Source of the DNA: Candidatus Saccharimonadota bacterium
GTDB taxonomy: Bacteria > Patescibacteriota > Saccharimonadia > Saccharimonadales > Saccharimonadaceae
Assembly (NCBI GenBank): GCA_017431945.1
Contig: JAFRJZ010000005.1
Location: 14,259 to 78,258 of the forward strand
Direction: 5' to 3'
DNA: 64,000 bases
Part shown: positions 9,855 to 63,284 of the stretch, piece after piece
Layout: every line of letters starts with the position of its first letter
Numbering within the stretch: the first letter of the stretch is position 1
Position numbers and translations under genes: made by a program
The notes under the pieces: model-generated
Databases searched by the model: none
What the model was told of the DNA's origin: nothing
The model's input: the letters and a program-made list of their open reading frames with translations, nothing else

Positions 9855-12428
9855 CTACTTGGTGCTTCGCGTTTTGATGATAAGACAGAGAGTCGTCAGA
9901 ACTGCGATAAAGGATACTGCGAGACCGATTTTGAGAGTTGGATCTGAATATTTAAATTCAATAATATTCTCTCCGGTAGAAAGCGGAATCGCCATAAGAC
10001 AGTTGCCGATCAGCTGGGGAGTGGTCTTTTCGCCATTTACGGTTATATTCCAGTTTTTGTGATAAGGGATTGAGGTAAATAAGGTATCATGATGATCTTT
10101 GCTAACCTTTATAGCTACATGTTTGTTGGTAAAAGTTTGTAACTCAGCTGAGTGACTTTGGGTTTTGGTAGCGAAATCTTTGAGTGCGTCTAAATTTAAA
10201 GCGTAGAATTGTTCCGAAATCGCATCGGCGTGTTGCCTGTTGGCGGAAGAAACCTTAATAGAGCTAGAAGAAGCATCTTTTTGATTTGGCATATAAAACA
10301 CCGATGGAGCTAACCAACGATTATAACCAAGAGTGTGGCCGTCTTCAAATTGAAGTTCTACTGATTCACTGCCACCAACCCAAGTAAGGTTACCATATAG
10401 TAGATAGTTTTTGAAGTCTTCAGGAGCGGACACTTCGTATTCAGTGTAATCATTGTGGGCGGATTTTTTGAAATTAACCTGAGAAAATAGGCTGAGTTCT
10501 TTGCCGGCCAGACCGCTATATATATTATTAATGGTCGTAAATGGGTTGTTTCTATCAACTTGAATGTCTTGGTATTGATAATCAAAAGCGATTGGCAAAT
10601 AATATGGATTGTAATAGGTTTTGCGGTCGCCGTAATCTTTATTAAGTGGTTGTAAACCGTTTATGTCGTATTCAGACATAATATATTTTACCCCGAGTAG
10701 CGAGTCGGTAGCGAGGATTGAATTATTAGTGATATTAAAATTGTCGCCGTTTCTACGATAGCCAACATCATTTAAGAAGGTGAGCTGGCGAATGTCTGGA
10801 CTAGAAGTGTAACCAGAAACCGACATATAGTTTTGAGCAAGACTCTCGTTATAATTGGCGATGAGGCCGTTTTCTGTCATATATTCGGTGGAGGTTTGAG
10901 AAATTCTGTAAAGGCTAGAGTCGCTGTTTTTGATGTCTTGAATCTGGTTGGTAATACTACTTGTGTAGTTTTTATATTCATTAACGCCCAGGAAGAGATG
11001 GTTTTTGGTAATAATAAAGGCGTTAAAAGTGAGTTCTGCGGTGGTCGCGATAATAAGAATGATGGCTAAAATTAGGCGTTGTTTGACCTGGTTTTTGATG
11101 ATATTTCTGTAATAAAAAGTTAGAATCACCGAGATGATAATAATATCGGCGACAAATAAATAAGTGAGGTTTAGATTTACGGGGTGGACAAATTGTAAAA
11201 TAATTTGGATTAGAGCTATAACTAGGCCGGCCTTGAACCAAATTAGGTAATCTTTGGGTTTTGAAACTTGGCCTCTGAGAGAAACAAAGGCGGTAGCACC
11301 CAAAAATACCAGAGTAAACGACCCGATATATGCGAAACGAGTATAATAAGAGCTGGCATCTTTGAGGAGCGAAAAGAGGAAAAATAGTGGCCCCCAACAA
11401 AGGATTAAATAAATGACGCAAAGAGAGGCTATGGTGATGATTTTTTGTCTTTTAGAAAATCTATGTCTACCAATAAAGATCGAAATGATACCAAGAAGAC
11501 TGATACTACCACAGAAAAGAGATACTTCGGTTTGCGTATCAGTGGCGCCAAGGCGTAAGTTTTGAATCATTGCTGGTGCTTCGCTTCTAAAACCGAGCTT
11601 TAAATATTCAAAATCTATGCCACCACGACTGCCGCCGCTTAGTGCCGACAAAGTGGGCAGTAATATCGCTGTACTCATAGCGACGCCTAAGATAGCGGAG
11701 ATAATAAATTTAAATAGATACTGCCAAATTTCTTTGAGTTTTTTCTGTGATAATGCATATTCTAAAACAAACCAAAAACCGATAAATACACAGTCAATTA
11801 GCCCACTATACCAGTTGAAAATGATAGCTAGGGCGATTGAGAGGGGTAAGATAAGATTAAACCGGTTCTTTGAGATTAATTTGTAGGTCCCTAGCGCCAT
11901 AATCGGTAACATGTAGACGCCGTCTAGCCACATAATGTTGCAGTTTTTGGTAATAACATAGGCGCACAGCGCGTAACCTAAGGACAACGCAATCAGGAGT
12001 GGAGTGTGGAGTTTTTTAGAAAAGCGGTTATTTAGAAAAATCGCGCAAGTGACAGCCGCTAGAGAAATCTTAATAGCGATAAGAATATCAATAAAAGAGT
12101 GGAGGTCGGTTTTGTCAAAAAATACAACAAGTAGGCTGAGGGGTGACGACAGATAATAGGAAAAAACCGCAAAAGCATTATCGCCAAGTGTTTTGTCAAA
12201 AGTATAGGTAATATCGTTTTGGCCGGCTAAGACATCTTTAAAATAGGAGAAAAAATCAATGTATTGGATATAGGCGTCATTGACAGCCAGGCTGCGGTCA
12301 TTACCAAACGGTGCACAGTGAAGTACAAAAAGTACCGATAAAAAGGCAAGGAATGTGATAATAAAAATAAGCAAATAAAGGAAAGCTGGTTTATGGAAAT
12401 ATTTGAAGGTGTTTTTGAATTTGCTCAT
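9855..12428 (-). CDS. YfhO-family polytopic membrane glycosyltransferase
   Basis: 857 aa with more than 10 TM helices in the first ~480 aa, a large extracytoplasmic C-terminal domain and a terminal TM. The size and topology fit YfhO. It lies immediately downstream of a CsbB-like GT2, the known partner arrangement. Confidence 0.7.
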   Translation of the reverse strand: MSKFKNTFKYFHKPAFLYLLIFIITFLAFLSVLFVLHCAPFGNDRSLAVNDAYIQYIDFFSYFKDVLAGQNDITYTFDKTLGDNAFAVFSYYLSSPLSLLVVFFDKTDLHSFIDILIAIKISLAAVTCAIFLNNRFSKKLHTPLLIALSLGYALCAYVITKNCNIMWLDGVYMLPIMALGTYKLISKNRFNLILPLSIALAIIFNWYSGLIDCVFIGFWFVLEYALSQKKLKEIWQYLFKFIISAILGVAMSTAILLPTLSALSGGSRGGIDFEYLKLGFRSEAPAMIQNLRLGATDTQTEVSLFCGSISLLGIISIFIGRHRFSKRQKIITIASLCVIYLILCWGPLFFLFSLLKDASSYYTRFAYIGSFTLVFLGATAFVSLRGQVSKPKDYLIWFKAGLVIALIQIILQFVHPVNLNLTYLFVADIIIISVILTFYYRNIIKNQVKQRLILAIILIIATTAELTFNAFIITKNHLFLGVNEYKNYTSSITNQIQDIKNSDSSLYRISQTSTEYMTENGLIANYNESLAQNYMSVSGYTSSPDIRQLTFLNDVGYRRNGDNFNITNNSILATDSLLGVKYIMSEYDINGLQPLNKDYGDRKTYYNPYYLPIAFDYQYQDIQVDRNNPFTTINNIYSGLAGKELSLFSQVNFKKSAHNDYTEYEVSAPEDFKNYLLYGNLTWVGGSESVELQFEDGHTLGYNRWLAPSVFYMPNQKDASSSSIKVSSANRQHADAISEQFYALNLDALKDFATKTQSHSAELQTFTNKHVAIKVSKDHHDTLFTSIPYHKNWNITVNGEKTTPQLIGNCLMAIPLSTGENIIEFKYSDPTLKIGLAVSFIAVLTTLCLIIKTRSTK

Positions 12429-36263: not shown

Positions 36264-36977
36264 ATGAATTCTAACGAAGATGAGCTTCAAAAAGCAATAA
36301 ACGATATAACTAATAACATGTTGAATGAAACGCCGGTAGCACCGGAGGGTGTTGCACCAGCGCCGGTAGCGGAGACGCCTGCAGCACCGGTCGAACCGGT
36401 AACGCCAGTTGAACCAGTGGCTCAAGTGGCACCAGAAACTGCTAATATGGTACCGCCAACGGTAGCGCCGTTGCCAGATGCACAAAATTTGCAAACAGCG
36501 CCAGTGGCGCCAGTAGCGCCAGTGGCGGAGGCGACACCTGAGCCAGCTCCTGCTGAGGAAGTAGTATCTGAGGTGGTGACGGCGGATATTCCAGATTTGT
36601 CGATGCCAGAACCGGTGAGTGAGCCGGAGTCGGCTGATGAGCCAGCTAAGGAAGATGAGATTAAGAAACCGGAAGAAGTAAAAGAAGAGCCAAAGGAAGA
36701 AGAAAAACCAGTAGAAGGAATGACGATGGATTTCAGTGAAAAAATGGAGATAGAGCCGGGTGGAGTGAAAGAGAAGGCTTTGCGTGACTTGATGCCGATA
36801 TTGAGCGGAATGAACAATATAGATGCCGAAAAGAAGTTTAAGATTTATTGTGATATGATGGAAGTGTTGGGTGAGAAAGATATCGCAAATGACGCTTATG
36901 AAGTGGCAACACAGATTGGTGACGACAACGTACGCGGTGAAGCCTTGCTTAAATTAGTTGATTTGTTAGATAAATAA
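36264..36977 (+). CDS. Hypothetical acidic Pro/Ala/Val/Glu-rich protein
   Basis: 237 aa with a good SD (aaggtggg). It has low-complexity PVAP/EPV repeats and a structured-looking C-terminal ~70 aa. Confidence 0.5.
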   Translation: MNSNEDELQKAINDITNNMLNETPVAPEGVAPAPVAETPAAPVEPVTPVEPVAQVAPETANMVPPTVAPLPDAQNLQTAPVAPVAPVAEATPEPAPAEEVVSEVVTADIPDLSMPEPVSEPESADEPAKEDEIKKPEEVKEEPKEEEKPVEGMTMDFSEKMEIEPGGVKEKALRDLMPILSGMNNIDAEKKFKIYCDMMEVLGEKDIANDAYEVATQIGDDNVRGEALLKLVDLLDK

Positions 36978-36996
36978 GAATGTATTAAATAAAAAT

Positions 36997-37030
36997 TAGG
37001 GCGCTTCGTGTCGCGCCCTAGTAATTTTTA
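36997..37030 (+). terminator. Intrinsic terminator after 36264..36977
   Basis: tagggcgc-ttcgtgtc-gcgcccta, followed by a T-rich tract. Confidence 0.6.
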
Positions 37031-37046
37031 CAACATATTCGCGATA

Positions 37047-37084
37047 TAAAAACCGCAAAGAGGCTAAAGCCTTGCGGTTTTTAT
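37047..37084. terminator. Bidirectional intrinsic terminator (serves groEL on the minus strand)
   Basis: aaaaaccgcaa-agaggctaaagcc-ttgcggttttt, with A/T runs on both sides. Confidence 0.7.
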
Positions 37085-37134
37085 TCGGAAATGTTGTTAA
37101 AATTGGGGCTCACTCAGAATGCCCTAATTTTTAT

Positions 37135-38757
37135 TTAATACATTCCCATTCCACCACCAGCAGGAGCTGCGGGGGCTTCGGGTTCGGGGATATCGACAAT
37201 CAAAGCGCCCATGGTGATGGTGGTAGCGGCAATACTGATGCTATTGGCGACCGCTTCTTTGGTGACCCTGGCGGGGTCGATGACACCGGCTTTCTTGAGG
37301 TCAATAAGGCCTTTTTCGGGCTTCATAACATTAACGCCATAGCCGGGTTTGGCTTTTTCAACTTCGGCTAAGAGAGCTTGAGAGTTGAGACCGGCATTTT
37401 TAGTAATATGAATAAACGGAGTTTTGAGGGCGTTTTTGACGATAATAGTTCCTTGGTCTTCGCCTTTGAGTTGATCGGCGAGGTTAACGAGGGTGACGCC
37501 ACCACCGGCAACTACACCATCAACAAGAGCGGCCTTAGTGGCGGCGACGGCATCGTCAACGCGGAATTTCTTTTCGTTAATTTCAGTTTCGGTAGTACCG
37601 CCAACTTTAATAACGGCAACTTTGCCGAGGAGAGCGGCGGCGCGCTTTTCGAGCTCTTCGCGCTCGTAGTCGCTAGTAGCGAGGTTGGCCTGGGATTTGA
37701 TGAGGGTAATACGCTCTTTAACAGCCTTGCTATTGCCAGCACCTTTGATGATGGTAGATTCGTCTTTGGTGGCAATAATTTTATTAGCGGAGCCGAGAAC
37801 TTCGAGGCCGACATCTTCTAATTTAAGACCTTTGTCGGCGGAAACGACAGTGGCGTCGGTGAGGATAGCGATATCTTCCATGATTTCCTTGCGACGGTCA
37901 CCAAAAGCGGGAGCTTTGAGTACGAGAGTGTTAAAGACGCCTTTGAGCTTATTAAGAACAAGTAAAGAAAGAGCTTCGCCTTCAACCTCTTCGGCGATGA
38001 TAACGAGTTCTTTTTTGCCAGCCTGAGCAACTTTTTCAAGGAGAGGAACGATTTCGTTGGCTGAACCGATTTTGTTGTCGGTGACGAGGATGAGAGGTTT
38101 GTCAAAAATGGCTTCTTGACGGTTGACATCAGTGACAAAGAAAGGCGAAGAATAACCCTTGTCATAGCTGAAACCTTCGACGATTTCCTGTTCCATTTCG
38201 AGACCTTGACCTTGCTCAACGGTAACCACGCCATCGGGGCCGATTTTACTGATGACTTCGGCGATGAGTTTACCAATTTCGGCGTCGCCGGCAGAGATAG
38301 TAGCAACTTCGGCGACTTTGGTATCATCACCGGCGATTTGTTCGGCGGATTTTTCAATACCTTGAATAATTTGTTCGCCGGCTTGCTCAATACCTTTACG
38401 AAGCTCCATCGGGTTGACGCCAGCGGCGATAAGCTTGTTGGCTTCATTTAAGATATTATAGGTGAGGACGGTGACGGTGGTGGTACCATCGCCAGCGACC
38501 TTATTAAGCTTCTTAGCGGCCTCTTTGATGATACGAGCACCGATTTGCTCGCCGAGATTGTCTTCGGTGGCGCCAAGATCGACGGCTTCAGCGACAGTGA
38601 CGCCATCATGAGTGATGGTGGGGGCGCCGTAAGATTTCTCGATGACGACATTTTGACCTTTAGGGCCAAAAGTGACTTTGACGGCGTCGTAAAGTTGTTT
38701 GGCGCCGCTTAGAACCTTGTCGCGGGCTTCTTCGTTGTAAAAAATTTTCTTTGCCAT
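37135..38757 (-). CDS. groL: Chaperonin GroEL
   Basis: 540 aa: MAKKIFYNEEARDKVLSGAKQLYDAVKVTFGPKGQNVVI...AGDGTTT..., with a C-terminal GGMGMY tail. Confidence 0.97.
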   Translation of the reverse strand: MAKKIFYNEEARDKVLSGAKQLYDAVKVTFGPKGQNVVIEKSYGAPTITHDGVTVAEAVDLGATEDNLGEQIGARIIKEAAKKLNKVAGDGTTTVTVLTYNILNEANKLIAAGVNPMELRKGIEQAGEQIIQGIEKSAEQIAGDDTKVAEVATISAGDAEIGKLIAEVISKIGPDGVVTVEQGQGLEMEQEIVEGFSYDKGYSSPFFVTDVNRQEAIFDKPLILVTDNKIGSANEIVPLLEKVAQAGKKELVIIAEEVEGEALSLLVLNKLKGVFNTLVLKAPAFGDRRKEIMEDIAILTDATVVSADKGLKLEDVGLEVLGSANKIIATKDESTIIKGAGNSKAVKERITLIKSQANLATSDYEREELEKRAAALLGKVAVIKVGGTTETEINEKKFRVDDAVAATKAALVDGVVAGGGVTLVNLADQLKGEDQGTIIVKNALKTPFIHITKNAGLNSQALLAEVEKAKPGYGVNVMKPEKGLIDLKKAGVIDPARVTKEAVANSISIAATTITMGALIVDIPEPEAPAAPAGGGMGMY

Positions 38758-40811: not shown

Positions 40812-40926
40812 GCACTTTTGTTCGTGGACTTGAAACGAAAAAATCTCATACACTGGTAAACGGCAGGAATATAGATTTTTTCGTTTCAAATCTGACTTAA
40901 CAAACTACTCACAAAAGTGCTTATTT
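40807..40926. repeat. Nested palindromic repeat, copy A (~120 nt), starting at the murE stop codon
   Basis: Outer inverted repeat: aaataagcacttttgt / acaaaagtgcttattt. Inner inverted repeat: cttgaaacgaaaaaatct / agattttttcgtttcaa. The core ...tttcaaatctgacttaacaaa is shared with copies at 62496 and 63124. Confidence 0.8.
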
Positions 40927-43922: not shown

Positions 43923-44030
43923 TTTTTACCACAAATTAAAAAAATGTGGTATAATATGATTGTTACAGTATATCTGTAATGTTCGTTTAATTTCTAGGTG
44001 GGTGTGCGAGTTGATCAAGCATCCACATAT

Positions 44031-53640: not shown

Positions 53641-53975
53641 CTAGTGGCAGCACCAGCACTAATACCTTTGGCGCTCTCTCCTTGGCCTATGGTGGTTCTG
53701 GTTGGAATCAGACTGATATGGCGGTTAATCAACGTTTTCGTGCTTATCCGAATAATTTCCTCTCTTCCGGCTACGTTAACGGTTCCTCGGTGAGCAGCCG
53801 TGGCTCGATCGGGTACTGGTGGGCTAAGTCGGCGTACTCGGCTCCGAACGCGTACCGCTTGAACCTGGCTTACAATGGCAACGTCTACCCGTCCGGCTAC
53901 GACCGTAAGTGGCTCGGATTCACGGCGCGCTGCCTTGCTGGCTCGTAGCTGAGGGTTGGCTGGGGTGGGGGTAAG
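53641..53975 (+). repeat. Hypervariable repeat copy 1 (DGR variable-repeat-like 3' gene cassette)
   Basis: It includes track ORF 53682..53948 (...GFTARCLAGS*). The variable core is 53772-53915. The invariant GC-rich end is ggattcacggcgcgctgccttgctggctcgtag, followed by a G-rich tail. In-frame tga tga lies immediately upstream of the homology. Confidence 0.75.
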
Positions 53976-55107: not shown

Positions 55108-55435
55108 TAGCGGCACCACCAGCACCAACTCCTTTGGCGCTCTCTCCTTGGCCTATGGTGGTTCTGGTTGGAATCAGACTGATATGGCGGTTAATCAACG
55201 TTTCCGTGCTTATCCTAATAATTTCCTCTTTTCCGGCTACGTTAACGGTTCCTCGGTGACCAACCGTGGCTCGCTCGGGGACTGGTGGGCTAAGTCGGCG
55301 TACTCGGCTCCGAACGCGTACAACTTGTACCTGGGCGGCACTGGCAACGTCGGCCCGTCCGGCGGCAACCATAAGTGGGTCGGATTCACGGCGCGCTGCC
55401 TTGCTGGCTCGTAGCTGAGGGGGTGGCTGGGGGTT
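55108..55435 (+). repeat. Hypervariable repeat copy 2
   Basis: It lies within track ORF 55073..55414. The variable core is 55238-55381. The conserved flanks match copies 1 and 3. Confidence 0.75.
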
Positions 55436-56213: not shown

Positions 56214-56540
56214 TAGTGGCACCACCAGCACCAACTCCTTTGGCGCTCTCTCCTTGGCCTATGGTGGTTCTGGTTGGAGTCAGACTGATATGGCGGTTAA
56301 TCAACGTTTTCGTGCTTATCCTAATAATTTCCTCTTTTCCGGCAGCGTTAACGGGTCCTCGGTGCTCAACCGTGGCTCGCGCGGGCGCTGGTGGGCTAAG
56401 TTGGCACTCTCAGCTCCGAACGCTTACGACTTGGGCCTGGACGGCGATGGCTACGTCGGCCCGTCCCTCAACACCCGTAAGTGGTACGGATTCACGGCGC
56501 GCTGCCTTGCTGGCTCGTAGCTGAGGGGTGGGTGGAGTGA
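56214..56540 (+). repeat. Hypervariable repeat copy 3
   Basis: It includes track ORF 56254..56520. The variable core is 56344-56487. An in-frame taa lies 4 codons upstream of the homology boundary. Confidence 0.75.
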
Positions 56541-59763: not shown

Positions 59764-62499
59764 ATGATGAAATTTGCGAAATCTTATGAACCGGGGGATA
59801 AGGAACCAGAAATTTATGCGGCTTGGGAGGCGTCGGGGGCGTTTCGGCCGAAAGTGCCACAGTATCCAGTAAATGATGCGTCTTCTCGGGGTGTTGATGC
59901 GGAAAAGGGGTTGGATCAGAGTAAGTATTACAGTATAGTGATGCCGCCACCGAACGCAAATGGGAATTTACATATTGGCCATGGGCTGACGGTGGCTTTG
60001 GAAGATTCGCTGACGAGATATTATCGGTTGCGTGGTAGATCGGCTTGGTATATACCAGGGGCGGACCATGCTGGGTTTGAGACCTGGGTGGTGTATGAGA
60101 AGTCGCTAGAAAAGATAGGTAAGTCGCGATTTGAATATTCGCGAGATGAGCTGTATGCGCAGGTGTGGGATTTTGTAGAAGAACAGCGGGGGAATATGGA
60201 GTTGCAACTGAGGGCGCTGGGAGCGTCGTGTGCCTGGGATGATTTGACATTTACGTTAGATGAAAATGTGGTGGCGAGAGTGTATAAGACATTTGAAAAA
60301 ATGTGGAATGATGGGATGATTTACCGAGGGGAGAAGTTGGTAAATTATTGCTCGAAGCATAGGACGGCGTTTGCGGATATAGAGGTGGAGCACAAGGATG
60401 AGAAAGGGATGTTGTGGGAGATTGCATATCCGATAGTAGAAGATGATTCAAATCAGAATTTTTCGGAGGCGCGTCCGTCCGGCCCGTCGTTACGGGCGGA
60501 CGGCGCTCAAGCTCGCCGCAGCTCCGCATCCTCCGAAAAATTTGATGTTGAATCATCTTCCGCTCTTGTCGTGTCCACCACTCGTCCTGAAACGTTATTT
60601 GGGGATGTGGCGGTGGCGGTGAATCCGGAGGATGAGCGATATAAGGATTTGATAGGTAAACATGTGAGGTTGCCCTTGACAAAACGCGAGATTCCTGTTA
60701 TAGCTGATGAACATGCTGATATGGAGTATGGAACAGGGGTGGTGAAGATTACGCCAGCGCATGATTATGATGATTTTGAGGTGGGGGAGCGGCATGATTT
60801 GCCTAGAGTACAGGTGATCGGTGAAGATGGTTTGATGCTGGATGCGGCAGGGCCAAATTATGCTGGGCTGACTACCGAGGAATGTCGTAAAAAGGTGTTG
60901 AAAGATTTGAAAGAACAGGGATTACTGCGGGGAGAGAAGAAGATTGAGCATGCGGTAGCGCATTGTTATAAGTGCGGTACAGTGATTGAGCCAATGCTGA
61001 AAGAACAGTGGTTTATAGATGTGGAGAAATTGGCGGAATTGGCAATAGAACGATTAGAAAAGGGTGAAATTAAGTTCTTCCCTGCTAGTAAGAAAAAGGT
61101 GCTGGTGAATTATCTAAGGGGGTTGAAAGATTGGAATATTTCACGGCAGATTCCGTGGGGGATTGCGATACCGATGTTTAGGAAGGTAAATGAAGATGCG
61201 ACGGATTCGCCGGATTGGGTATTTGACACGAGGACGAATTTGACAGAGATAGAGGTAGGTGGTGTGAAATATATGCGAGATGAGGATACATTTGATACAT
61301 GGTTCTCGTCGGCGCATTGGCCGATGGTGTGTACGGATTGGGTAGAGGGGGTGCCGAACCCGTATTATCCGCTGAATGTGATGGAAACAGGGGCGGATAT
61401 TCTGTTTGCATGGGTGGCGCGGATGATTATGATTGGCGTGTATGTAACAGGTGAAGTTCCCTTCCGCGAGGTGTATTTGCATGGCTTGGTGCTAGATGAA
61501 CATGGACAAAAAATGAGTAAATCAAAGGGGAATGTGATAAACCCGATGGAGCTAGTGACGAAATATGGATCAGATGCGTTTAGACTGGGGATACTGAGGG
61601 GGCGATCGGCAGGGATGAATCAAGCGTTCTCAGAGAATTCGGTGGTATCGGGGAGGAATTTGTGTAATAAGTTGTGGAATGTGGCGAGGTTGGTGGATGA
61701 TATTGTGAGTGAAGACGACGACTTTGATACATGCACCACGCTCAACACTGGGGAGGATTGGATTTGTAGAGAGCTGGATGTGTGTCGGGAGAAAGTGGAA
61801 TTAGATATGCTGAATTATCGGTTTGCGGAGGCGGTGGAGACGCTGTATTCAACGATTTGGGATAAATATGCGGATTGGTTTTTGGAAAGTCAAAAGATTT
61901 ATCGTAATTCCCCACTCTTGAAGAAAACTTTGGAGATGATTTTGGTGATGCTACATCCGTTTGCGCCGTTTGTAACAGAGGCGATTTGGCAAAATTTGTC
62001 GTGGACGGAAGATATGATTATTACGCAAAAATGGCCAGCAAAATTAGAGTATGACCCGATGACAGCAGGCGAATTTGAACGAATTCGTGAAGTAGTAAAC
62101 GAAGCAAGAGCGACTTTGCAGGTGATTGAAGGTGGTAAACGCTGGAAAATTTTGTATGGTGATGATTCCCTGGTGGCGGAAAATGCGGAGCTGATCTGTA
62201 AGTTGACGGGGGTACCGGCGGTAGAATCGTGTGAAGGACAACCGAGGGGACTAAGGTTAGCAACCATGAATAGCGAAGCGTACTTAGATGTGCCAGAGAA
62301 GGTGGTGGCGAAGTATCGAGCGACTTTAGAGGAGAAAATTTTGGCGGTGGGGCGTGAATTGGATGCCCTAAATGCGAGGATGATGAATCCGGCGTATGTG
62401 GATAAGGCGCCGGTACATCTAGTGAAGCAGACGCAAGATGGGATTAAAGAGAAACAGGCGCTGATAGAGAGACTTAAGAAACAACTAGAGGTAATATAA
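59764..62499 (+). CDS. valS: Valyl-tRNA synthetase
   Basis: HIGH motif PPPNANGNLHIGH, TTRPET, the KMSKS motif and a C-terminal coiled-coil. 911 aa. Confidence 0.95.
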   Translation: MMKFAKSYEPGDKEPEIYAAWEASGAFRPKVPQYPVNDASSRGVDAEKGLDQSKYYSIVMPPPNANGNLHIGHGLTVALEDSLTRYYRLRGRSAWYIPGADHAGFETWVVYEKSLEKIGKSRFEYSRDELYAQVWDFVEEQRGNMELQLRALGASCAWDDLTFTLDENVVARVYKTFEKMWNDGMIYRGEKLVNYCSKHRTAFADIEVEHKDEKGMLWEIAYPIVEDDSNQNFSEARPSGPSLRADGAQARRSSASSEKFDVESSSALVVSTTRPETLFGDVAVAVNPEDERYKDLIGKHVRLPLTKREIPVIADEHADMEYGTGVVKITPAHDYDDFEVGERHDLPRVQVIGEDGLMLDAAGPNYAGLTTEECRKKVLKDLKEQGLLRGEKKIEHAVAHCYKCGTVIEPMLKEQWFIDVEKLAELAIERLEKGEIKFFPASKKKVLVNYLRGLKDWNISRQIPWGIAIPMFRKVNEDATDSPDWVFDTRTNLTEIEVGGVKYMRDEDTFDTWFSSAHWPMVCTDWVEGVPNPYYPLNVMETGADILFAWVARMIMIGVYVTGEVPFREVYLHGLVLDEHGQKMSKSKGNVINPMELVTKYGSDAFRLGILRGRSAGMNQAFSENSVVSGRNLCNKLWNVARLVDDIVSEDDDFDTCTTLNTGEDWICRELDVCREKVELDMLNYRFAEAVETLYSTIWDKYADWFLESQKIYRNSPLLKKTLEMILVMLHPFAPFVTEAIWQNLSWTEDMIITQKWPAKLEYDPMTAGEFERIREVVNEARATLQVIEGGKRWKILYGDDSLVAENAELICKLTGVPAVESCEGQPRGLRLATMNSEAYLDVPEKVVAKYRATLEEKILAVGRELDALNARMMNPAYVDKAPVHLVKQTQDGIKEKQALIERLKKQLEVI
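60439..60560 (+). repeat. 122-nt GC-rich palindromic element inserted in frame within valS
   Basis: The 31-nt arms are gaagatgattcaaatcagaatttttcggagg (60439-60469) and cctccgaaaaatttgatgttgaatcatcttc (60530-60560). They are complementary at 26 of 31 positions. They flank a 60-nt GC-rich core with its own imperfect hairpin. Confidence 0.75.
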
Positions 62500-62619
62500 G
62501 AAATAAATTAGTCTTTACTCAGACGACTTGAAATGAAAAAATGCTCCCTAAAGGGTGGCATTTTTTCATTTCAAATCTGGACTTAACAAAGTCTTCGTAA
62601 AAACTAATTTATTTCTTAT
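62496..62619. repeat. Nested palindromic repeat, copy B (~124 nt), starting at the valS stop codon
   Basis: Perfect 17-nt outer inverted repeat: ataagaaataaattagt / actaatttatttcttat. Inner inverted repeat: cttgaaatgaaaaaatg / cattttttcatttcaa. Core: ...tttcaaatctggacttaacaaa. Confidence 0.8.
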
Positions 62620-62916
62620 TTCGCTCATATTTCCCTGTTGAGTCCGTGAAATTTTTTGACTGTTTGGCGGTTATGGTTTGTTGTGGTTGTCAGCTTGAGT
62701 GTTTTATGACATAGCCATAAAAGCTAAGCTGTGAAATAGTGGTATTAAAAACTTAGCTTGGCATATCAGTAGGTGCTCCCAATTACCGCCCACTCGCTGG
62801 TAATTGTTATGGCTAGTTTAGCATGGGCGGGTTGCTAAGTCAAGTGGTTGCTAAATATAAGGGAATTAAAATAAAAAACATGAGCTGAATTGTGTAAAAC
62901 TTGATATAATGGAGCT

Positions 62917-63123: not shown

Positions 63124-63284
63124 TAAGAAGTAAATTAAACACTTTTTGTTCGTGACTTGAAATGAAAAAATGTCATACATTGGTAAACGAAGGTCGCGTC
63201 CCAAGGGGCGAACAAGAATATACATTTTTTCATTTCAAATCTGACTTAACAAATACTTACAAAAAGTGCTTAATTTACTTCTTA
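63124..63284. repeat. Nested palindromic repeat, copy C (~161 nt)
   Basis: 26-nt outer inverted repeat (1 mismatch): taagaagtaaattaaacactttttgt / acaaaaagtgcttaatttacttctta. The inner part is nearly identical to copy A, with an extra GC-rich insert (gtcgcgtcccaaggggcgaac). Confidence 0.8.

Follow-up and report, generated by a model that had tools for sequence, protein, structure and literature searches.

A hairpin insert in valS as a putative copy of a dispersed, strand-polarised palindromic repeat family of Saccharibacteria

We find that valS, the valine-tRNA ligase gene of a Saccharibacterium (59764–62499, plus strand), carries a 122-nt hairpin element in frame (60439–60560), and that this segment, to judge from its sequence, belongs to a dispersed family of ~118-nt hairpins of Saccharibacteria of the Nanosyncoccus group. 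Positions refer to the window, the 64,000-nt stretch of DNA analysed here. The reading that we favor, with a probability of roughly 0.8, is that of a selfish or neutral hairpin family of the same kind as the Rickettsia palindromic elements (RPEs), one copy of which was inserted in valS after the lineage had split. The original prediction, a palindromic element that lies in frame and resembles RPEs in its behavior, is supported by the insert being lineage-specific and by the abundance of copies outside valS. We take this likeness to be one of behavior and not of family membership, the comparison with RPEs being by description alone.

The element is delimited by the pairing of its arms and by its fold as single-stranded DNA, and amounts to a net insertion of 117 nt (39 codons) relative to sister genomes. 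The left arm (GAAGATGATTCAAATCAGAATTTTTCGGAGG; 60439–60469, plus strand) and the right arm (60530–60560, plus strand) are each 31 nt long and pair at 26 of 31 positions (84%), with two perfect 13-bp blocks (GAAGATGATTCAA/TTGAATCATCTTC and AATTTTTCGGAGG/CCTCCGAAAAATT), just as had been described beforehand. The distal part of the left arm is specific to this copy, and the final ~10 nt of the arm are part of the family junction. The 60 nt between the arms (60470–60529) are 75% G+C (45/60), compared with 35–47% in the 2-kb windows of the region. A GC-rich core with an imperfect hairpin of its own had been noted, and the hairpin was found as P3 (60472–60503; CGTCCGTCCGGCCCGT-CGTT-ACGGGCGGACGG), which is better conserved than any other part of the family; P2 (60510–60523; AGCT CGCCGC AGCT) appears in the fold as a shortened version of the family's second hairpin. 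Folded as ssDNA, positions 60430–60570 reach -45.6 kcal/mol versus -20.0 +/- 2.8 kcal/mol for 200 dinucleotide shuffles (z = -9.2), none of which folds as well (0/200). The family core profile matches 60456–60540 on the minus strand (nhmmer, 46.3 bits, E = 5e-12), and the forward strand of the window copy (RRCG loop) is the minus strand, antisense to valS and locally C-rich.

The 911-aa open reading frame of valS confirms that the segment lies in frame between the WEIAYP and TTRPET blocks, 60439–60560 being translated as VEDDSNQNFSEARPSGPSLRADGAQARRSSASSEKFDVESSSA, flanked by WEIAYP and LVVSTTRPET. Homologues of this ValRS carry PF00133, PF08264 and PF10458 and are named valine--tRNA ligase of Candidatus Saccharibacteria bacterium. 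The insert site is a beta-turn, probably at the surface, where the editing domain of ValRS begins; the Thermus thermophilus enzyme (1GAX) has an EGGG beta-turn only (...RYEV-EGGG-FIEIATVRPET), and the loop is 5 residues long in the nearest non-identical orthologues. The insert is presumably translated as a disordered loop of 39 residues: an AlphaFold model that is poor overall (mean pLDDT 56), and of use here only in that the insert appears as a loop with no structure, has residues 227–265 as coil (pLDDT < 50) flanked by two strands. The element would have been retained in valS because the frame is preserved and no stop codon is present.

The insertion in valS postdates the split of this lineage from insert-free sister genomes. 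In two of these (L081 and L083; ~83% nucleotide and 86–88% amino acid identity in valS), a clean 117-nt gap stands in place of the insert, which is present in all four near-identical ValRS sequences (P0001–P0004; 13 contigs); the alignment of orthologues that had been proposed as a check therefore shows it to be lineage-specific. The empty alleles do not contain the element arms. A fold-back or template-switch origin, with one arm supplied by the host and the other its inverted copy, was rejected for the window copy because the loop of the sister alleles is ~15 nt long and has little beyond GATGAT in common with the arms, the net insertion being 117 nt for a hairpin of 122 nt. Other Saccharibacteria also have inserts in the same loop of ValRS, and their peptides are not conserved: GPSLRA (window) and SPV(A/T)TG (elsewhere) are both encoded by one CCCGT-NNNN-ACGGG hairpin, which occurs in the ValRS loop in both orientations and in several reading frames, so that a conserved insert peptide was rejected. 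Presence also varies at the same site, with copies in P0047 that are missing from P0146 and P0145. No filled and empty pair close enough to expose a fresh insertion junction was found among the compared alleles, and we infer the mobility of the element.

Outside valS the family is large. In 2.2 Mb of related DNA the profile has 209 matches; at the valS loci the core profile has 97. The hairpin motif was counted 83 times across 1.49 Mb and 0 times in shuffles. A metagenome scan returned at least 120 matching stretches, 112 of them verified by profile and these mostly on contigs of 39–48% GC. Long open reading frames contain 172 of the 209 copies in frame (82%), across 79 Pfam families, with host genes that include those of a P-type ATPase, TsaD, FemAB, Der, MnmA, TrmD, Dus, ArgRS, LepA and RecX. 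Only one of the 209 has no open frame across it, and the nine exceptions among the 82 copies examined first were intergenic and not gene breaks. The family behaves as selfish or neutral DNA, ~80% of its copies being fused in frame to housekeeping genes and the remainder intergenic. The search for further copies that had been suggested found many outside valS and a single one in the 64-kb window, where neither a search at ≤ 3 mismatches nor a profile search at E ≤ 10 gave a second. The sister genomes L081–L083 have no copies in ~20 kb of each, and the family is nearly absent from the window lineage, where the valS copy could be a relic. We found no description of the family in the literature that could be searched. 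Viral contigs gave no match, for which reason a phage origin was rejected.

The single copy in the window would agree with a lineage-specific insertion domain of ValRS, or with a one-off local duplication-inversion, unrelated to repeats, and the latter had been named as an outcome that would speak against a mobile element. We give these explanations next to no weight, since the window core shares 80–85% identity across 79 nt with copies from genes and contigs unrelated to it and matches more than 200 copies elsewhere, the DNA hairpin and not the peptide is conserved between lineages, and the empty alleles are without arms; motif counts, profile matches and core identity to unrelated copies already refute them.

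Copies of the family have a median length of 118 nt (IQR 116–124 nt) and share a conserved core of ~80 nt, in which two hairpins on a closing helix form a three-way junction. The core consensus has 34 pairs, 19 of them with compensatory changes, and one-sided changes are almost nil. The stems covary, whereas three GA/GA pairs and one G.T, all of them non-Watson-Crick, show no variation. The covarying pairs switch from Watson-Crick to Watson-Crick and G-U wobble intermediates are almost missing, which is why we suggest that complementarity may be upheld by templating at the DNA level, for example by quasipalindrome correction. The flanking arms of ~20 nt have a sequence unique to their site yet are self-complementary: within a copy the two arms show 94% complementarity along a median length of 18 nt, whereas combining the arms of different copies gives matches of 6 nt (measured by local alignment, RNAfold and anchored X-drop extension having proved unreliable). 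Distal arms of non-orthologous copies are identical at 0.50, the random level, even where the cores are at least 93–97% identical, and between these copies there is no conserved terminal sequence; orthologous copies reach 0.89–0.96. We know of no transposon that endows each copy with new self-complementary termini. As the arms are copy-specific across the family, the short resemblance of the window arms to the 3′-end palindromes carries no weight. The original prediction made no link to these AT-rich palindromes (GACTTGAAAYGAAAAAAT), where the profile search has no match, and kinship with them was rejected for lack of any profile similarity.

The orientation of the copies follows the GC-skew (replication) strand. 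The forward strand is the C-rich strand by GC skew in 149/160 copies (93%), and the rule holds for sense (83/90), antisense (44/47) and intergenic copies (22/23). Copies residing in valS switch orientation with the skew of valS (35/37), and the window copy follows the rule as well, the skew of the window being independent of gene direction. In 179/198 copies the forward strand also forms the more stable ssDNA hairpin. As orientation is tied to the skew strand and not to gene direction, this points to a replication-linked process at the DNA level rather than to a function of the RNA or the peptide, and spread and maintenance may take place on DNA at the replication fork. Which strand is taken as the lagging-strand template depends on the G-richness that leading strands show as a general rule (PMC7143001). 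The strand rule could arise from differential survival instead of insertion.

An element acting at the RNA level, either a regulatory structure of the mRNA or a hairpin that is cut out of the valS transcript like an intron or by RNase processing, would make use of the high stability of the hairpin, in which the two junctions come to lie next to each other, and of a core that is a conserved, structured three-way junction. Nevertheless, we regard it as highly improbable: an open frame, kept in all but one of the 209 copies and within long reading frames in 172, would be needless if the element were excised, 61 of the 172 genic copies (35%), including that of the window, are antisense to the host gene so that the mRNA holds the complement, orientation goes with the replication strand and not with transcription, and G-U intermediates are missing from the covariation. 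A search of Rfam gave no family match, only sub-threshold microRNA-hairpin noise.

The hallmarks of transposition were looked for and not found in this family. Flanking direct repeats, as left by target-site duplication, are no commoner than in swapped controls, and outside the hairpin no position is conserved that would indicate a target motif, an end tetra- or pentanucleotide or a GTAG/CGTC tag. Left-half and right-half profile matches 0.15–5 kb apart, which would indicate an autonomous or split version, were absent, and tblastn with three approximate Y1 (HUH) transposase sequences, a weak test, gave no match in 2.2 Mb. A Pfam scan of the 145 open reading frames adjoining intergenic copies revealed no recurring transposase, and the 25 commonest families listed are housekeeping genes only. 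Loss of copies is documented by a 96-nt deletion allele with the left arm kept (L205) and by an arms-only palindrome (L016), and copies may decay through slippage deletions, with footprints of the arms left behind.

IS200/IS605-type elements with their miniature derivatives and the REP/BIME (RAYT) elements resemble the family in being hairpin-based with imperfect stems and in having neither sequence-conserved terminal inverted repeats nor target-site duplications. The orientation of IS200/IS605 elements is also coupled to the replication fork, as is the case here (149/160). The family differs from both in having no conserved tetra- or pentanucleotide at its ends, and in forming one large three-way hairpin as opposed to two subterminal hairpins or a GTAG/CGTC-tagged REP of 20–40 nt, and the sampled DNA gave no Y1 transposase in the weak test above. 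Classical MITEs (Correia/NEMIS, ERIC, RUP) are likewise short, non-autonomous and hairpin-capable. Their terminal inverted repeats are conserved in sequence, target-site duplications flank them and their composition is usually AT-rich, whereas in the present family the termini are not conserved, duplications are lacking and the core is ~75% GC. REPs inside genes are known (PMC3733652), and MITEs are, like the present family, sometimes fused to open reading frames (PMC2229807).

The cores are far more conserved than their surroundings, being 95–99% identical between species in which valS is only 73–78% identical. In the pair L023/L067 the core is identical at 80/81 positions compared with 75–78% in the flanks, and in L064/L077 it is ~95% identical compared with 73%. 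The same sites are filled in many genomes with constant polarity and differing core subtypes. Such conservation could mean that the core is selected for a role in the host and is not selfish. Under the selfish or neutral reading, the cores may instead be renewed through re-insertion or gene conversion from a cross-species pool. A host-selected or uptake- or recombination-driven ssDNA signal, with a core bound by a replication, repair or uptake protein, with coding regions that merely tolerate it and with valS as one site among others, would account for this conservation, for the invariant GA/GA and G.T positions amid covarying stems, for the strict strand polarity and for the occupancy of sites across genomes, and Saccharibacteria are naturally competent (PMC10187176). 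We nevertheless consider it unlikely, as close relatives do without the signal (none in L081–L083, one in the 64-kb window), ordinary deletions remove copies, the junction G.A mismatch of the family is lost in the window copy, the partner protein is hypothetical, and hairpins of 118 nt within essential genes would be a costly way of signalling. More tentatively, and at odds that we place well short of even, the family may be a new replication-polarised element, whose ~80-nt core spreads within and between genomes, possibly by natural transformation, and ends up between site-specific palindromic arms, by landing or by conversion, through a mechanism that matches none of the transposition pathways described, or else a selected ssDNA signal for replication, repair or uptake that has colonised the coding regions of an ultra-small genome.

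With the RPEs (Ogata et al. 2000, 2002), as far as the summaries in PMC2229807 and PMC2996958 describe them, the family has in common that both are hairpin-forming repeats of 105–146 bp, dispersed in the reduced genome of a host-dependent bacterium, found in intergenic regions and as in-frame fusions at loop positions of conserved housekeeping genes, and without a known transposase. Analogous protein-coding palindromic repeats are known from Wolbachia and Methanocaldococcus jannaschii. The Saccharibacteria are, on the other hand, an unrelated phylum, and their copies share just the ~80-nt core with site-specific terminal arms, show a strong replication-strand polarity and have near-identical cores across species whose valS is 73–78% identical. 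We know of no replication-strand polarity described for RPEs. To our knowledge, essential genes that contain palindromic repeats in frame had been an oddity known from Rickettsia and a small number of other taxa, and no mechanism had been established. The family would be a second such case, large and independent of the first, from the Candidate Phyla Radiation, and it offers clues that the classic case lacked, namely a strand polarity of 93%, a core that appears to move or convert independently of its arms, cores nearly unchanged at ~25% divergence of housekeeping genes and documented deletion footprints. How such elements spread, how the perfection of their palindromes is kept up and how proteins gain disordered loops become questions that can be tested by sequence and in cultivable Saccharibacteria. 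We point out that the elements inflate and diversify marker proteins (ValRS, ArgRS and TsaD) used in the phylogeny and annotation of these genomes.

Some copies, such as that at site B of L023, continue the palindrome into host codons, which leaves room for a small contribution of the host to the palindrome. ValRS loops of intermediate length (23–37 aa) were considered as arms-only footprints and rejected as such, most of them not being palindromic; those that are palindromic are L016 and perhaps L041.

The valS gene of the window (59764–62499; 911 aa, with valine-tRNA ligases of Candidatus Saccharibacteria as homologues) contains, in frame, a hairpin element at 60439–60560. Our arm, base composition, fold and ORF measurements agree with the original prediction, which had described self-complementary arms with two 13-bp blocks and a GC-rich core with its own hairpin, maintained in frame. 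The 31-nt left arm (60439–60469) is 84% complementary to the 31-nt right arm (60530–60560), two perfect 13-bp blocks included, and the 60 nt that separate them have a G+C content of 75%, against 35–47% in 2-kb windows of the region. Within the core, a strong inner hairpin (60472–60503) and a small one (60510–60523) are folded, and the element as single-stranded DNA reaches −45.6 kcal/mol, compared with −20.0 ± 2.8 in dinucleotide shuffles (z = −9.2). A profile of the family core finds a sole match in the window, at 60456–60540 on the minus strand (E = 5e-12), and the window core shares 80–85% identity over 79 nt with copies on unrelated contigs. We put the chance that this valS segment is a copy of a dispersed family of in-frame elements at roughly four in five.

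The insert is present in all four near-identical ValRS sequences (13 contigs), whereas the next relatives (86–88% aa identity) read WEIAYP-GDDFE-LIVSTTRPET at its position, and valS DNA of the nearest non-identical loci, L081 and L083, is ~83% identical to the window with a clean 117-nt gap at the element. The ortholog alignment that had been proposed thus finds the insert to be lineage-specific. Thermus thermophilus ValRS (1GAX) aligns on either side of the insert with only RYEV-EGGG-FIEIATVRPET between, where EGGG is a hairpin turn at the editing domain's N-terminal edge. Built on a shallow alignment, the AlphaFold model is of poor quality (mean pLDDT 56); in it, residues 227–265 are a low-confidence coil between two strands. 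The insert sits in a beta-turn of ValRS.

Among 120 homologues and 80 genomic loci, this loop measures 17–21 aa in many and 45–106 aa in about 25. The loop peptides group as, for example, (A/S)RPS(L/S)R and SPV(A/T)TG, all derived from one hairpin, CCCGT-NNNN-ACGGG, differing in frame and orientation, and all long inserts fold into extended hairpins (−41 to −107 kcal/mol). What occupies the loop in other genomes is common DNA, not a common peptide. At least three element sites recur in the valS loci L001–L084: site A at ~10.2 kb (near window residues 45–55), site B, the loop of the window element, at ~10.74 kb, and site C at ~11.9–12.0 kb (near window residue 650), and therefore ValRS length ranges from 865 to 1010 aa among related genomes. 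The gene calls P0070, P0140, P0146 and P0155 differ only by 18–31 additional N-terminal residues (e.g., MFIIPLKCYLVNYYRGSGFWLVGECVWYNGG-), probably alternative start calls and not biology.

Copies also appear to be lost. The valS locus L205 (P0146; 3001–5877) is 91% identical at the nucleotide level to L008 (3564–6455) and is missing 96 nt of the ValRS loop, where it retains the left arm in full, and L206 (P0145), compared within the same 90% protein cluster, is without the site-A copy. In locus L016 (~10652–10744) there is an arms-only palindrome, GAGCCAAAAGATG/CATCTTTAGCTC, and its arms are orthologous to those of L026. From these alleles we infer that copies decay through deletions across the hairpin, and some of the intermediate-length ValRS loops are probably footprints of such deletions.

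The search for further copies, also proposed at the outset, found them in numbers. A strict motif for the hairpin is present 83 times in 1.49 Mb and not once in shuffles, and the core profile detects 97 copies in valS loci (one in the window, none in the sister loci, four in L084). A wider scan with a 20-base degenerate pattern gave no match in viral contigs and at least 120 stretches in metagenome contigs; among those listed, 112 were verified by the profile, mostly in contigs of 39–48% GC, while eight unverified ones lie in contigs of 62–71% GC and are probably chance matches. Counting copies at ≥30 bits (n = 209), 172 sit inside long ORFs whose frame stays open to either side, 36 are found between genes or at the end of an ORF, and a single copy has no open frame; the nine exceptions among the first 82 copies were intergenic, not gene breaks. 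Proteins of 79 Pfam families serve as hosts, among them P-type ATPase, TsaD, FemAB, Der, MnmA, TrmD, Dus, ArgRS, LepA, RecX and NAD synthase. Most of the source genomes are MAGs from gut or rumen that carry a Saccharibacteria or Nanosyncoccus label, Ca. Nanosyncoccus alces being one of them.

We define the forward strand of a copy by an apical loop reading RRCG. On this strand a copy comprises an outer stem, a junction TTCGAG...CGAGAA with a tandem G.A mismatch, and two inner hairpins, P2 and P3, the latter broken by two further GA/GA pairs; the median hairpin length is 118 nt (IQR 116–124). The copy in the window is intact, although the junction has turned into a perfect helix (TTCGGAGG/CCTCCGAA). 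Neither a target-site duplication nor a conserved flanking base was found at family copies. RNAalifold on 22 ungapped copies of one subtype gave 34 pairs, 19 of them with compensatory double changes; one-sided (wobble) changes were nearly absent in this set, and the GA/GA pairs and one G.T position were invariant. This pattern fits complementarity upheld at the DNA level better than selection on RNA.

Core and arms behave as separate units. Copies within one genome can share cores of 66–89 nt that are 95–100% identical, with sharp limits near the junction and unrelated arms. For 185 copies, the two arms of a copy show 94% complementarity along a median of 18 nt, and when arms of different copies are paired instead, the match extends over 6 nt. 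Non-orthologous pairs have a distal-arm identity of 0.50, as expected by chance, at any core identity; in orthologous pairs it is 0.89–0.96. Loci L023 and L067 share 80 of 81 positions of the site-C core with valS flanks 75–78% identical, and L064 and L077 have cores ~95% identical in flanks of 73%, so cores are, on these alignments, far better conserved than the host gene. One site often holds differing core subtypes across genomes, as in the window and L084. Two models are consistent with all this: each insertion might gain fresh arms; alternatively, old full-length copies would retain diverged arms while cores are swapped through re-insertion or gene conversion. The limits of identity shift by a few nucleotides from pair to pair, which makes us lean toward conversion of cores.

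Orientation follows replication strand. With elements masked, 149 of the 160 copies with usable skew have their forward strand on the locally C-rich strand, be they sense (83/90), antisense (44/47) or intergenic (22/23), and the window copy, antisense within valS on the G-rich strand, conforms. Across 80 valS loci, roughly half of the genomes have the gene on the G-rich strand and the others have it on the C-rich strand, a split that implies inversion relative to replication more than once and long enough ago for skew to re-equilibrate; resident copies flip to match in 35 of 37 cases. As orientation is tied to the skew strand, an mRNA or peptide function is excluded as the organising principle, and the rule points to single-stranded DNA at the replication fork. 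Leading-strand assignment is here assumed from the general rule that this strand is G-rich (PMC7143001). The polarity may reflect strand-specific insertion, by analogy with IS200/IS605-type transposition, or may instead reflect differential survival; the forward strand forms the more stable single-stranded hairpin in 179 of 198 copies (median −39.4 vs. −36.5 kcal/mol).

Rickettsia palindromic elements (RPEs) are long stem-loops of 105–146 bp, in frame in conserved genes and with no transposase known (PMC2229807; PMC2996958). The family resembles them in size, stem-loop, placement in conserved genes and the failure to find a transposase, and it likewise resembles in behaviour the analogous repeats of Wolbachia and M. 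jannaschii; the RPE-like reading in the original prediction holds. The family does not qualify as a classical MITE, since its termini are not conserved and it makes no target-site duplication. Its polarity, hairpin dependence and absence of duplication are shared by single-strand (HUH) systems and by REPs, which are known within genes (PMC3733652); it lacks the tags and target motifs of those systems, and no transposase was found in the DNA sampled. Considering the RPE match, the MITE failure and this partial likeness together, we regard the family as RPE-like in what it does, by analogy, and claim membership in no described family. No Rfam family matches the element, no split or autonomous copy was found, three unverified Y1 transposase query sequences gave no match in 2.2 Mb, and the 25 commonest Pfam families beside intergenic copies include no recurrent mobility gene. 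Our confidence in any single mobility mechanism is low. Full-text literature searches turned up no account of elements of this kind from Saccharibacteria or the Candidate Phyla Radiation. The valS copy, a modest feature taken alone, is the visible tip of a large, apparently undescribed family, and no current mechanism explains its strand polarity together with its core and arm behaviour.

The GC skew of the window is strongly positive (0.18–0.40) from 1 to 44 kb regardless of gene direction; it is near zero or below between 44 and 54 kb and returns to positive values past 54 kb. As it is unchanged across stretches with genes on both strands, it is not an effect of transcription; the change near 44000 might mark a rearrangement, a stretch of foreign DNA or a landmark of replication. 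AT-rich palindromes that form a family (GACTTGAAAYGAAAAAAT.../...ATTTTTTCRTTTCAAATC), with no similarity to the GC-rich element, lie at 40827–40892, 62525–62577 and 63154–63241, and also at 36973–37150, the second and third nested within larger inverted repeats (62471–62644 and 63124–63284). These palindromes are intergenic, directly past gene ends (e.g., 26 nt beyond the valS stop), and probably represent terminators or a further family of small repeats. Three GC-rich (≤78%) repeats of ~190 nt at 53785–53971, 55246–55434 and 56345–56537, with common strings CGTGGCTCG...GGATTCACGGCGCGCTGCCTTGCTGGCTCGTAGCTGAGGG, are probably repeated surface-protein domains; the gene in the syntenic position of L081 gives weak matches to Fib_succ_major and Flg_new.
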